Below, one piece after another: positions 12,755-16,980 of a stretch of 64,000 nucleotides of DNA. The number at the start of each line of letters is the position of its first letter. Position 1 is the stretch's first letter. Source of the DNA: an uncultured candidate division Zixibacteria bacterium (GTDB taxonomy: Bacteria; Zixibacteria; MSB-5A5; UBA10806; 4484-95). The translations under genes and the position numbers were made by a program. The stretch is from positions 160,001 to 224,000 of the forward strand of contig CAXXKA010000001.1 in NCBI GenBank assembly GCA_963668625.2, read 5' to 3'. The notes under the pieces were generated by a model that saw only the letters and a list, made by a program, of their open reading frames with translations, was not told the DNA's origin and ran no database searches.

Positions 12755-12844
12755 CTCAATTAATCTGTTGTAAAATAACACGTTACCCAAAAGGCGAATG
12801 TCTCGCCAGAAAATATCAAAAATATCACTTTCATTTATATATAT

Positions 12845-12860
12845 GGGCATGGCTTTTGCG
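12845..12860 (+). promoter_or_regulatory. Putative sigma-54 (-24/-12) promoter
   Basis: GGGCATGGCTTTTGC: GG-N10-GC with TTGC, about 40 bp before the ORF at 12902. Confidence 0.5.
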
Positions 12861-12901
12861 CTTTCTTAAGGGAAATCGTTCACGAGAGAAGGAGGCGGAG
12901 T

Positions 12902-13276
12902 ATGAAATGCTTTTTCCAGGGAGTTGTTAGAGACAACAATATCGAAACCCAGTTCAACAGCTTTGTAAGTTTCATCATACCCGAGCTTGGAATCAATTTC
13001 CGAGGCCAGTTTAAAGGCGACTATGAGGAATGCGAGTACGCCAGCCTTCTGGCCCTCCTGGAGTTCATTGAATTAAACAATCATCTCTTCAAAGATAAAC
13101 GAATCGAGATACTTGGCAATAACTACAGCGTAATCAGCCAGGTCAACTCGGTCGAGGAGCCCTCCACGGATTTGGAGCCGTTATGCAGTCTGGCGCAAAG
13201 CTATAAGAAGAAATTCCCGTTTATCCTGGACTGGATTCCTACCGAAGAAAATATGGCTCAGGATCGCTGGGTGTAG
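12902..13276 (+). CDS. Degenerate RNase HI-like protein
   Basis: CEYASLLALLE, IEILGNNYSVISQVN and WIPTEENMAQD resemble RNase HI motifs AEYxAL, GDSxLVxxQV and WIPRExNxxAD; AAGGAGG RBS. Confidence 0.65.
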   Translation: MKCFFQGVVRDNNIETQFNSFVSFIIPELGINFRGQFKGDYEECEYASLLALLEFIELNNHLFKDKRIEILGNNYSVISQVNSVEEPSTDLEPLCSLAQSYKKKFPFILDWIPTEENMAQDRWV

Positions 13277-13304
13277 CGTTTAAAATGAAAACCGGAAGCT
13301 TGTT

Positions 13305-13333
13305 TAAGGGTCATTCAATGGCCCTTATTTTTT
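13305..13333 (+). terminator. Rho-independent terminator
   Basis: TAAGGGTCAT/ATGGCCCTTA stem plus T-run. Confidence 0.75.
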
Positions 13334-13344
13334 GTTTATACTGT

Positions 13345-13372
13345 TTGACTAAACTCAAATACATGTTATATT
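13345..13372 (+). promoter_or_regulatory. Sigma-70 promoter (probably the original carboxypeptidase promoter, now upstream of the IS)
   Basis: TTGACT-N16-TATATT with extended -10 TG. Confidence 0.6.
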
Positions 13373-13448
13373 TAAGTAGGGTAGAGAACTTAAGCTTCAT
13401 AGAAATGGTTTATTTAATTGGAAACAAAGGAGATGGTACGATAAAAGC

Positions 13449-13668
13449 ATCTTGCTAATCTATTCTGTTGGTGTTAGAGCTTCGGTAATGAATTTCTAAC
13501 TGGAGCGGATAGGTTATAGGCTGAACTGAATGCTTGAGGCCAGACCTCGTAAAGGAGATTAATCAGACCTGTAACCGAATTGCCACCATAAGGCAAAGAC
13601 CTTGAATAGGAGTTTGGTAGGCGCCGACAGAGAGTCTGCTCCAGTGATAACCATAGAATGGAGCAAGA
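13449..13668 (+). ncRNA. Candidate IS110 bridge RNA (target- and donor-binding loops)
   Basis: Stems 13499-13510/13634-13645 and 13512-13520/13568-13576; loop segments AAAGGAGAT (13551-13559, equals target), ATAGGAG (13606-13612) and ACCAT (13585-13589) matching the donor junction. Confidence 0.72.
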
Positions 13669-13670
13669 AG

Positions 13671-14684
13671 ATGAGGTACTTAGGAGTAGACCTTCACACA
13701 AACAGTTTGACCGTGTGTTACCTGACAGCCGGTGGTCGGGAGAGGATCAAGGAGTATCGGCTAAAGGATCTAAAGGAATTTAAACGAGGATTAAAAAAGA
13801 CGGATTGTGTAGCGGTTGAGGCCACTGGCAACACTCGTTATTTCGTTGATGAGATATCGCATTTGGTCAAGCGAGTTGTTGTCGTCGATCCGAACAAATT
13901 TGAGATAATCAAATCATCAGTCAGTAAGACGGATGAAAACGATGCCAGGAACTTAGCCTATTTTATGAGCAAAGACATGTTGCCGAAAGCCCGATTAAAG
14001 ACGAAAGATAAAGCGCAGATCAGTTCACTTGTTGGGACACGGGACAAGCTGGTCAAGTTACGTACAGCTTTGAAGAATAAAATACACAACATACTCAATC
14101 ATCATGGTATCAAGAGTAAAAAGGAGGCCTACTCCAGCAACAAGAGTTTGGAGCGGGTTCTAAAGATGAATTTTGATGAGGTTGTTTCTGTTGAGCTTGA
14201 GGTATTGGTTGATCAGATTCGCAGTTTGAATGAGGGGATAAAAAAGCTGGACAAACAGATAGAGGATCAGGGTCGCAAGTTGAACGGGCATAAGAACCTG
14301 ACCAGCATCAAAGGAATCGGCAGCAAATCAGCTACAGTGTTGCTTTCGGTAATTGGTGATGTTGCTGATTTTTCGGACAAAGATAAATTGGCCTCATATT
14401 TTGGCGTAGTGCCGCGAGTTTCCAATTCAAACGAGATTCAGCATCATGGTCGGATTACCAAGCGTGGTTCTAAGATTGGTCGGACTACACTGGTGCAGTG
14501 TACGCTTGTTGCCATACGATATAACCATTACTTGAGTAAATATTACAATCGTATAAAAAACCGTCGTGGCAGCGGTAAGGCTATCATTGCCACAGCCAGA
14601 AAATTACTGGGAATAATCTATGACACCTTGAAAAATAATTGGGTGTTTGAAGATTTCCCTAACTTTGTGTTAGCAAACAGATAA
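13671..14684 (+). CDS. IS110-family transposase/recombinase (DEDD + Transposase_20)
   Basis: MRYLGVDLH, VAVEATG, KTDENDA DEDD motifs; SIKGIG HhH; PRVSNS...GRITKRG; KAIIATARKL; GGAG RBS at 13660-13663. Confidence 0.95.
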   Translation: MRYLGVDLHTNSLTVCYLTAGGRERIKEYRLKDLKEFKRGLKKTDCVAVEATGNTRYFVDEISHLVKRVVVVDPNKFEIIKSSVSKTDENDARNLAYFMSKDMLPKARLKTKDKAQISSLVGTRDKLVKLRTALKNKIHNILNHHGIKSKKEAYSSNKSLERVLKMNFDEVVSVELEVLVDQIRSLNEGIKKLDKQIEDQGRKLNGHKNLTSIKGIGSKSATVLLSVIGDVADFSDKDKLASYFGVVPRVSNSNEIQHHGRITKRGSKIGRTTLVQCTLVAIRYNHYLSKYYNRIKNRRGSGKAIIATARKLLGIIYDTLKNNWVFEDFPNFVLANR

Positions 14685-14721
14685 CTGAAATTTGGAGTAG
14701 ACTTTTATCATAGGAGATGAA

Positions 14722-16980
14722 ATGAAAAAATATCTATTGTTCGCGGTTGCTTTTAGCCTGATGCTTTCAGCATCCGCCATACATGCAAACGAGAATCCCT
14801 CATTGTTGCATGTTTACTTAATGAATAAAACCGATGTTATGAAGCTGGCCGATATGCCTCTGGATATTCCTTATTATACAGAGGATTATGTCGAGGTAGT
14901 TGCTTATAGTGATGATATCGCGGAAATAGCCGCGGCCGGATTGCATTATGATATAGTGCAGGAAGATATGGTTAGTTTCTATCAACAACGCAACCCGGTG
15001 ATTACCACGATGGGCGGATACCTGACCTATAGCGAAGTAGTGGACTCTCTTGATATGCTTCATATGCTTTATCCTGAACTGGTCTCCGAGAAATTTTCGA
15101 TCGGCCAGAGCTGGGAGGAGCGCGATCTGTGGGTGATCAAGGTTTCGGATAATGTCGATACCGATGAGGATGAGCCTGAGATTTTCTACAATGCATTAAT
15201 TCACGCTCGCGAACCTGCAAGTATGGCCTGGCAACTGAATTTCCTTTCCTGGCTTCTGGAAAATTATGGCATAGATGATGATGCTACCGAAATTCTGGAT
15301 GGACGTGAAATCTGGTTCCTGCCCGTTTTTAATCCGGATGGCTACGAATATAACCGTCAGACCAACCCTAACGGCGGCGGCATGTGGCGTAAAAACAGAC
15401 GTTCCGGTGGCGGAGTTGACTTGAACCGTAACTGGGGCTACATGTGGGGCTATGATGATGACGGCTCTTCGCCTTATTCCAGTGATGAAACCTATCGAGG
15501 CCCGGCGGCGTTTTCGGAACCCGAGACTCAAGCTGTCAGAGATTTCATTACCGGCCGCGATTTCAGTTTCATTATAAACGCGCATACTTATGGCAACTGG
15601 TGGTTGTATCCTTACGGCTATGATGATATTTATACTCCCGATCAGTCGATTTTCAGCGCTATCGGCGACTCCGTCGAAACGTTGACCGGTGGCGATTACA
15701 GACCCGGTACCGCCTGGGAATGTTTATACAATACCAATGGTGATGCCAACGACTGGCAGTACGGCGAACTCGGCCTGTTTTGTGCCACCCCCGAAACCGG
15801 CAATTCCTCGGATGGATTTTGGCCGGCGTCGTATCGTATAAATCCACTTAACGCCCAGATGTTACCCGTAGCTATCTATATCGCTCAGATTGCCGGAAAT
15901 GTCGAGACAATCTCGGCGCCGACCGCGCCCGTCTTGAACCCCATCGGCCAGCTCGATACATCATCGTATACCGTAAGTTGGACGCATGAGGATGAGGATA
16001 ATCCGGCTGTGGCTTATGAACTGGTCGAGAAATCGGGATATCTCAGAACCGAAGACGATATCGAATCGGGTGATGGTTTGTGGGAGTTCGATGGTTACGG
16101 AATCAGTACCAGCCGTTATCACTCCTCTAACCATAGTATATTTTCCGGGAATGAGAACTCATACCACGGCAGCGCTATTTTGGCTGATGAGCTGAACGTT
16201 TTAGATGATGACACTCTGTCGTTCTGGGTTTGGTTCGATGTCGAGGAAGATTTCGACTATGGCTATGTTGAAATTTCCACCGATGGCGGGGCTATTTTCA
16301 CACCGATCGAGGGAAATATAACCACTAATTACGATCCTAACGGCTCCAACCGGGGTAATGGTATAACCGGCTCCTCCGCAGGTTGGATCGAGGCCTCGTT
16401 CCCGCTGGATGCTTACGCCGGTATGTCCGTCCAGATCAAATTCAGCTATGTTACCGATAGCTGGATGCTGGAGAGTGGTATATATATAGATGATGTTTAC
16501 CCGATTGAGACTTTCGAAAGCGAGATGGTTCTGGCCTCGGATATTGCAGATAACTTCTACGATATAACAGATCGGGAAAATGGTACTTATTTCTATCAGG
16601 TCCGGGCGAAAGATGCCGAGGATCAATGGTCGGGATTCTCCAATCGCGAGGCCGCTATTGTTGACGCTAACGTATCAATAGATGATAACAATCAGATTCC
16701 GGCCGAATTTAACCTGGCGCAGAATTACCCAAATCCGTTTAATGCCAGCACCGAAATTAGTTTTGCTTTATCGAGCGCCGGTTACATTACTCTCGAGGTT
16801 TACGATATCGCCGGCAGATTGGTAAGAACTCTCCTGAGCAGCGATATGACGGCAGGCGATCATACCGTAATATGGAACGGCTCGAATGATAACGCCGAAT
16901 CGGTTTCTTCCGGCATATATTTCTATAAGCTCACGACCGATCAAAAATCGGAAACCAGGCGGATGACCTTACTCAAGTAA
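14722..16980 (+). CDS. M14 zinc carboxypeptidase (carboxypeptidase T-like) with InhA-like/Fn3 modules and T9SS-like CTD
   Basis: Signal peptide, IHARE, NPDGY, WRKNR, GVDLNRN, FSEPET, NAHTY; QNYPNPFN...SSGIYF...RMTLLK. Confidence 0.93.
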   Translation: MKKYLLFAVAFSLMLSASAIHANENPSLLHVYLMNKTDVMKLADMPLDIPYYTEDYVEVVAYSDDIAEIAAAGLHYDIVQEDMVSFYQQRNPVITTMGGYLTYSEVVDSLDMLHMLYPELVSEKFSIGQSWEERDLWVIKVSDNVDTDEDEPEIFYNALIHAREPASMAWQLNFLSWLLENYGIDDDATEILDGREIWFLPVFNPDGYEYNRQTNPNGGGMWRKNRRSGGGVDLNRNWGYMWGYDDDGSSPYSSDETYRGPAAFSEPETQAVRDFITGRDFSFIINAHTYGNWWLYPYGYDDIYTPDQSIFSAIGDSVETLTGGDYRPGTAWECLYNTNGDANDWQYGELGLFCATPETGNSSDGFWPASYRINPLNAQMLPVAIYIAQIAGNVETISAPTAPVLNPIGQLDTSSYTVSWTHEDEDNPAVAYELVEKSGYLRTEDDIESGDGLWEFDGYGISTSRYHSSNHSIFSGNENSYHGSAILADELNVLDDDTLSFWVWFDVEEDFDYGYVEISTDGGAIFTPIEGNITTNYDPNGSNRGNGITGSSAGWIEASFPLDAYAGMSVQIKFSYVTDSWMLESGIYIDDVYPIETFESEMVLASDIADNFYDITDRENGTYFYQVRAKDAEDQWSGFSNREAAIVDANVSIDDNNQIPAEFNLAQNYPNPFNASTEISFALSSAGYITLEVYDIAGRLVRTLLSSDMTAGDHTVIWNGSNDNAESVSSGIYFYKLTTDQKSETRRMTLLK

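Follow-up and report, generated by a model that had tools for sequence, protein, structure and literature searches.

The window analysed here, a stretch of 64,000 nucleotides from an uncultured candidate division Zixibacteria bacterium (assembly GCA_963668625.2, contig CAXXKA010000001.1, positions 160,001 to 224,000 of the forward strand), carries an insertion element of the IS110 family. Its left end of 238 nt (13433-13670) very probably encodes, on the + strand, a bridge RNA for the DEDD recombinase of the same element, as far as can be judged from sequence. The structure of this RNA, its strand, the covariation of a guide with the host flank, a Shine-Dalgarno (SD) target and empty sites were observed and carry this reading. 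The element and its insertion site comprise the following features.

13433-14716, + strand: IS110-family element, 1284 bp with the AG core assigned to the right end alone
13671-14684, + strand: transposase (recombinase) gene, 337 aa, with the Pfam domains DEDD_Tnp_IS110 and Transposase_20
13426-13432, + strand: host SD sequence AAAGGAG, the left target half with the AG core
14710-14716, + strand: right end ATAGGAG, the left donor half with the AG core, which would replace the SD of the downstream gene
14722-16980, + strand: target gene, a secreted M14 carboxypeptidase (Pfam Peptidase_M14 and Por_Secre_tail)

Eleven near-identical copies of the element (99-100% identity) are present in the genome, and its ends were set where the flanks of these copies diverge. 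All 11 start with ATGGTACGATAAAAG and terminate with TTTTATCATAGGAG. Immediately 5' of each copy lies [A/T]AAGGAG (A in nine, T in two), and the ATG of a co-oriented gene follows 5-7 variable nucleotides downstream of the element in all of them; the base after GGAG is T in nine copies and A in two. In the window, the left junction reads AAAGGAG/ATGGTAC and the right junction TCATAGGAG/ATGAAATG (the slash marks the element boundary), as had been claimed in a preliminary description of this DNA. Two genomes of the same genus (G001 and G002) encode the orthologous gene without the element and with a single SD before the ATG (ggcAAAGGAGacgtgATG and gcGAAGGAGttgtaATG). The target is therefore a ribosome-binding site, and the empty target reconstructed in the preliminary description is sound. 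The M14 carboxypeptidase encoded behind the element bears a type IX secretion tail.

The same kind of site is used by relatives of the element. Among candidates of similar length, 4827 protein relatives were found at E ≤ 0.001, the best 120 of which share 65-100% identity. Loci were fetched from species-representative genomes (80, labelled Planctomycetota, Acidobacteriota, Calditrichota, Proteobacteria, Bacteroidota and others) and from metagenomes (80). At least 270 nt upstream were available for 148 of 171 loci, which gave 112 distinct, cleanly alignable left ends; the 23 shorter loci were dropped, as were two that were misaligned or degenerate (L019 and L068). The flank tests comprise 137 insertions, corresponding to 134 unique events from 102 distinct left ends; the junction of one locus (L055) was in the wrong register in the guide-flank event counts and was scored as a mismatch there. 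Nearly all junctions of the family read xAAGGAG/[AG][TC]GG[TC]A[TC]GA on the left and ..CATAGGAG/flank on the right. Of 119 distinct insertion events, 103 have an ATG 3-12 nt past the element (mode 5-7), compared to 13 of 97 for a control site 150 nt further on.

The transposase matches PF01548 (5.7e-13) and PF02371 (5.4e-22) and thus has the DEDD RuvC-like and Tnp domains of IS110 recombinases. It is assigned to NCBIfam NF033542, IS110 family RNA-guided transposase, with 242.7 bits (cut-off 140). The residues D7, E50, D88, D91, S251 and S253 are invariant across 25 homologues.

The predicted RNA and its helices are located as follows; the share of paired cells and the number of pairs with changes on both sides are given for each helix.

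13468-13652, + strand: predicted bridge RNA, match to covariance model R1
13479-13506, + strand: 5' stem-loop, GCTTCGG (13479-13485) with CTGGAGC (13500-13506); 95.9% paired, 5 of 7 pairs with two-sided changes
13499-13510 with 13634-13645, + strand: outer stem, ACTGGAGCGGAT with GTCTGCTCCAGT; 85.3% paired, two-sided changes in 9 of 12
13512-13576, + strand: target-binding module, with a stem (13512-13524 with 13563-13576; 90.2% paired, two-sided changes in 6 of 10) and a hairpin (13535-13549)
13512-13520 with 13568-13576, + strand: GGTTATAGG with CCTGTAACC of the module-1 stem
13535-13549, + strand: hairpin 1, T-GAGG-CCAGA-CCTC-G; 99.8% paired, two-sided changes in 3 of 5
13580-13620, + strand: donor-binding module, with a stem (13580-13585 with 13615-13620) and a hairpin (13589-13604)
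13580-13585 with 13615-13620, + strand: module-2 stem, TTGCCA with TGGTAG; 83.9% paired, two-sided changes in 2 of 6
13589-13604, + strand: hairpin 2, T-AAGG-CAAAGA-CCTT-G; 100% paired, two-sided changes in 3 of 5

The minimum free energy fold of 13436-13672 reaches -80.5 kcal/mol (z = -5.0), a stability attained by none of 200 shuffled sequences, and contains the proposed helices; each stem, hairpin and motif named in the preliminary description was recovered in its place and in this fold. Over 87 distinct homologous left ends, the 41 pairs of the structure are paired in 89.2% of the cells, compared to 83.5% in shuffled controls and 27-45% when the partners are slid. Two-sided changes are found in 24 of the 41 pairs, and none of 500 shuffles reaches any of the observed measures. 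RNAalifold, applied to the same 87 sequences, independently finds the outer stem, the module-1 stem and both hairpins (34 pairs, 19 of them with two-sided changes). Model R1 scores 168.6 bits on the + strand versus 9.2 bits on the - strand, and a U-G pair closes both hairpins in all 87 sequences, which together indicate that the RNA is read in the direction of the transposase gene. The structured + strand RNA with a target and a donor loop, as originally proposed, is thereby borne out. A structured non-coding RNA of two modules in the long non-coding end, as found here, is a trait of IS110 bridge systems. No Rfam family matches the left end; within 12800-15200 there are just sub-threshold matches elsewhere.

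The 5' stem-loop, like the outer stem, needs GGAGC, and the two are therefore mutually exclusive. CTGGAGC pairs either upstream, in the 5' stem-loop, or downstream, in the outer stem, and one and the same column has compensatory changes in both helices; this alternative pairing may be a structural switch in the RNA. The two competing helices at the 5' end, together with a modest consensus energy, could also be taken to mean that the RNA folds otherwise than predicted and that the guides do not lie 3' of the hairpins. However, it is the best-supported helices that place the guides there (the module-1 stem with 90% pairing and six covarying pairs, both hairpins with 100% and three each), and no alternative pairing sets 13551-13557 or 13606-13612 5' of a hairpin in a closed loop, so that such a fold is exceedingly improbable.

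A second alternative concerns the DNA. The recombinase protein might itself read AGGAG-like sites, the internal copies being extra protein-binding sites that co-evolve with the ends. Many elements contain a 10-mer motif resembling GGAGTAGAC in three places, two in the left end and one in the right, and subterminal inverted repeats exist, both of which would suit a DNA-binding protein. The compensatory changes in the stems flanking the guides and the strand-specific G-U pairs point to RNA instead, the - strand scores just 9 bits, and the protein belongs to an NCBIfam family named RNA-guided. Recognition at the DNA level is thus very unlikely.

Within the two modules of the predicted bridge RNA, the sequences that would contact target and donor are these.

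13551-13557, + strand: target guide AAAGGAG on the 3' side of the target loop, with the same sequence as the left flank and AG core on the top strand
13558-13559, + strand: AT after the target guide, handshake-like, equal to the first two bases of the element
13585-13589, + strand: ACCAT in the 5' side of the donor loop, complement of ATGGT, the opening bases of the element (top strand)
13606-13612, + strand: donor guide ATAGGAG in the 3' side of the donor loop, the same sequence as the element's final 7 nt

The target guide follows the host flank. Position 13551 equals flank position -7 in 117 of 134 distinct events (A/A 74, T/T 39, C/C 2, G/G 2), a match of 0.87 compared to 0.47 after permutation. 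With guides shuffled among elements, none of 5000 permutations reaches the observed match at positions -7 to -3. In 20 events the guide differs from AAGGAG, and in 16 of these the flank holds the identical 6-mer (GAGGAG in eight, CAGGAG in three, GTGGAG in two, TAGGAG, AACCAG and ATCCAG in one each). A scan of 147 RNA positions against 12 flank positions returned 13551/-7 and 13552/-6 as the top couplings (mutual information 0.68 and 0.50), which form the diagonal expected of a top-strand-identical guide. Multi-copy elements agree: those with guide T have T at flank position -7 in five of five copies, for each of two elements, and those with guide A have A in four of four and nine of 11 copies. 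A plasmid-borne relative from outside the sample, matched by the model with 95 bits, has the guide GAAGGAG opposite the flank TCGAAGGAG. As the flank is host DNA, its correlation with the guide is not inherited with the element, and shared descent does not explain it. A loop that covaries with the genomic target in this way is characteristic of IS110 bridge systems. The covariation of the loops with host flank and right end, which the preliminary description had put forward as a check, extends across about 100 homologous elements. The guide had been given there as AAAGGAGAT (13551-13559); its AAAGGAG part tracks the flank, but the trailing AT corresponds to the first two bases of the element and not to conserved target sequence.

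These data also bear on the view that the left end acts in cis as a regulatory 5' leader of the mRNA for the transposase, in which AAAGGAG and ATAGGAG would be ribosome-binding decoys or sequestered sites instead of DNA guides. In its favour, the two motifs resemble SD sequences and are part of the 5' untranslated region of the transposase gene, and two competing helices are typical of switches. A translational leader, however, has no reason to covary with host DNA beyond the element; the guides that are not SD-like (AACCAG and ATCCAG) sit at host sites of exactly the same sequence, and position -7, which is outside the SD core, tracks the host flank in the 117 of 134 events mentioned above. 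A purely regulatory leader is highly improbable on these grounds, and a guide within a bridge RNA is the preferred reading.

The two elements with the guides AACCAG and ATCCAG (L060 and L084) also define the core. AG is all that their targets (..AACCAG and ..ATCCAG) have in common with the right end of the same element (ATAGGAG), so that the core is this dinucleotide. Both are naturally retargeted to the non-SD site GATA[AT]CCAG/ATCA. The 5' strand of their target loop ends with TGAT or TGGT, complementary to ATCA of the right flank, which adjoins the junction in L060 and lies three bases further on in L084. This complementarity is the sole hint of a guide for the right half of the target and could be due to chance.

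A perfect AAAGGAG target sequence is located within the element's own transposase gene (14120-14126). Before the transposase gene itself, the SD is GGAG after AT, a mismatch to the guide. AWAGGAG is present 17 times in the window, both strands counted (16.2 expected), five of the 17 in or at the 1.3-kb element; the comparative evidence is far stronger than this count from a single sequence.

For the donor loop, both partners of the covariation lie inside the element. Where the loop reads ATAGAAG (L049 and L055) or ATGGGAG (L067, L069, L079, L082 and L088), the right end reads the same. The match of ACCAT with donor ATGGT, noted in the preliminary description as a reverse complement, holds up: across 102 elements, 87% of the cells pair in register (wobble allowed), compared to 20-53% when slid. 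The donor loop thus appears to match and to covary with the junction of right end and left end, with few independent events; the support from donor-guide covariation is real yet thin.

Several observations weigh against the bridge RNA. Four of the 20 variant target guides mismatch their own flank, and six events with the default guide are located at a 6-mer with one or two mismatches. The donor guide of one element (L057) mismatches its right end, and the donor-guide covariation stems from about two independent lineages. The 5-nt signal of ACCAT is mostly conservation with few compensatory changes, and the handshake-like AT is indistinguishable from the phylogenetic background. Furthermore, a search of the 5' strand of the target loop, in fixed registers and in any register, brought up no clear guide to the right target half, and the right flanks vary among identical copies, as seen in the alignment of the 11 copies; the caveat to this effect in the preliminary description was well placed. 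Complementarity to right flanks is weakly raised along the 5' strand of that loop: the longest complementary run averages 4.44 versus 4.18, reached in 2 of 300 permutations. None of the fixed registers clearly stands out against right flanks, the best one being reached by 17 of 500 permutations. A coupling of 13530 with flank position +1 was considered as a right-target guide; it is isolated and lies in a gappy column, and no guide is claimed from it.

The RNA of IS621 is laid out as stem, left guide, stem-loop, right guide and handshake guide, and the 5' side of its loop pairs with the bottom strand (PMC11208160, PMC11208158). Like IS621 and ISCro4, the window element has a recombinase with DEDD and Tnp domains, a predicted RNA upstream of the gene, in the left end, the order 5' stem-loop, target loop and donor loop, and a dinucleotide core within the guides, here AG (CT on the other strand). 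A promoter across the joined ends is also shared, here as a promoter-like sequence. In contrast to these two elements, the 7-nt bottom-strand guides of the window element are located on the 3' side of the loops, and the guide order is the reverse of that in IS621. The 5' side of its donor loop pairs with the top strand over 5 nt with the core excluded, and its target loop is without an evident second guide. In significance searches with phmmer against the IS621 and ISCro4 chains of the solved structures, only the C-terminal domain (186-327) of the transposase gave a significant alignment.

When rotated by 180 degrees, the 3' guides may be read as resembling the right guides of IS621, as they end on the CT core and are followed by two bases. 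Past the core-pairing end of the guides, these two bases are at the position of the IS621 handshake guide, and the pair after each long guide may act like one. The second base of AT matches in 61% of cases compared to 38% after permutation, a figure confounded by shared descent because both sides lie inside the element. In the plasmid relative, CT is opposite CT at this position. Taken as a handshake, position 13559 couples with the element's second base no more strongly than unrelated columns do, and this is kept as a lead only.

In seekRNAs of the IS1111 family, the complement of the top strand is located 5' of the bottom-strand match, an order that is reversed in the IS110-type ISEc21 (PMC11187229). 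The donor loop of the window element has the IS1111 order, with ACCAT, the top-strand complement, 5' of ATAGGAG; in the target loop only the bottom-strand match is seen. The preliminary description had called the architecture distinct. The position of the top-strand-identical guides 3' of the hairpins is confirmed, but it is not unprecedented, since IS1111 seekRNAs have the same order (PMC11187229). The transposase is also alignable over its full length with that of the IS1111 member ISEc11 (26% identity, E 3e-24, 337 versus 339 aa). [quoted passage not shown] Repeats of this kind are present in the window element as well, though shorter (8 bp perfect).

13440-13447, + strand: left subterminal inverted repeat GATAAAAG, reverse complement of 14702-14709
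14702-14709, + strand: right subterminal inverted repeat CTTTTATC

The perfect runs measure 3-10 bp in 91 elements, and in at least 73 of the 91 the best inverted repeat is at equal offsets from both ends. Extensions of 7 and 3 nt (AG plus ATGGT, and AGG) fit only with the core assigned to the left and an imperfect repeat from offset 5. The non-coding region, in contrast to that of most IS1111 elements, comprises 238 nt upstream of the gene and just 32 nt downstream. Model R1 did not match in the non-coding regions of ISEc11 or IS4321, which is a weak negative. The window element thus resembles IS1111 in its ends and guide order and at the same time IS110 in where the predicted RNA is encoded.

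IS900 of Mycobacterium avium subsp. paratuberculosis, also of the IS110 family, targets translation initiation signals; its target motif CATGNNNNNNTCTCCTT is the reverse complement of AAGGAGA-N6-CATG, and its hed open reading frame (ORF), on the strand opposite to the transposase, is aligned with the host signals (PMC8141618). The IS900 transposase is therefore apparently antisense to the target gene. The window element likewise targets translation signals, but its transposase is co-oriented with the target gene and its right end supplies a replacement SD. The IS1111-like guide order and the targeting of translation signals in the manner of IS900 have thus already been reported; a literature search found no paper tying a bridge RNA to SD targeting. 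A preprint (10.64898/2026.10.21.760802) reports 86 bridge-RNA covariance models, many of them deviating from IS621, and the family of the window element may already be among these. The bridge RNA mechanism was described in 2024, and the element is a real variant of it, not a new principle.

Joining of the two ends would bring together the halves of a putative promoter.

14698-14703, + strand: TAGACT, -35-like half of the junction promoter
13437-13442, + strand: TACGAT, -10-like half, which would form a promoter only on joining of right and left ends

In the computed junction, TAGACT and TACGAT are separated by a 17-nt spacer. The identical hexamers are found in 34 of 91 elements, and the promoter-like hexamers score 7-10 of 12 in all 91.

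A mechanism can be proposed on the model of IS621 (PMC11208160, PMC11208158). The RNA would consist of the 5' stem-loop and two modules of stem, internal loop and hairpin, both of which the outer stem can enclose. The excised circle would join the right end to the left end and so create TAGACT-17-TACGAT, whereupon RNA and recombinase would be produced. One loop would then hold the circle junction and the other the SD site, with strand exchange at the AG/CT core, and recombination between circle junction and target at the AG core would yield the arrangement SD-[element]-ATAGGAG-spacer-ATG. By analogy, we infer expression of the RNA from the junction promoter, its binding by the recombinase and the chemistry of the reaction. 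After insertion, a promoter-like site of the host (13345-13372) could read into the element, and ATAGGAG of the right end, at SD distance from the host ATG, would provide a new SD for the downstream gene.

This host site, TTGACT-16-TATATT (10 of 12 matches), lies 60 nt 5' of the element, is preceded by the terminator of the upstream ORF (13305-13327) and is visible at the empty site of G001 as well. From it, a single transcript could cover the RNA, the transposase and the displaced gene. Right after the host SD, the element opens with ATG GTA CGA TAA (13433-13444), and relatives open with ATG GTA TGA; as a speculation, ribosomes loading at the captured SD might be released by this tiny ORF, which stops early. 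In the right end, the motif TGGAGTAGAC (14693-14702) nearly repeats, in direct orientation, the outer stem's 5' strand (13500-13509) and is complementary to its 3' strand (13635-13644) with ten pairs, one of them G-T. It is found in most relatives, is absent from the clade of L022, L030 and L046, and overlaps the -35-like hexamer.

The closest clade of relatives (L013, L015-L018, L020-L029, L093-L103 and others) has a left end of approximately 320-390 nt, about 100 nt longer than that of the window element. The additional part contains a long palindrome (GATATTTTTC...GAAAAATATC) approximately 230-330 nt upstream of the ATG, often after TTGACA; this part may serve as a promoter or terminator within the element. 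The extra palindromic hairpin is missing from the window element. The loci L093 and L094 have one flank in common and differ in the other, and L085 and L090 overlap on one contig, 3 kb apart; these pairs may be tandem or nested copies, or effects of the assembly.

The assembly unitig covering 13427-14716 has a depth of approximately 51 compared to 7 in the flanks, and in the contigs of three DNA runs the depth of the element exceeds that of its flanks about 7-9 fold. These contigs contained neither an empty site nor a circle junction, so that the depth ratio alone is available from them. A single skip of 56 nt (13618-13675), with just 21 nt on one side, was found among them and probably derives from a related element in another organism. 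In two runs (X1 and X2), loose ends at 13598 and 13696 carry a related yet different left end (...CGCCACCATAAGGCCG...), which indicates that a second member of the family lives in that community.

Bridge RNAs and seekRNAs are heavily studied as tools for genome writing, and the rules come nearly all from IS621, ISCro4 and a few IS1111 members. The subfamily described here provides evidence from nature that an RNA encoded at the left end can have its long guide 3' in both loops; it may recognise its target from one side only, and it inserts into the translation signal of a gene, which it replaces. Of interest are that no right-target guide is evident and that IS110 and IS1111 traits are mixed, and it may help to explain how the arrangements of IS110 and IS1111 are related. 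Tentatively, it could represent a third arrangement of bridge RNA or seekRNA that links both groups, with half-site targeting by a 7-nt guide and the core and with no right-target guide, although this is rather doubtful at present. If true, half-site recognition would let the element use every SD site in the genome, with the right end restoring the SD of the gene behind it.

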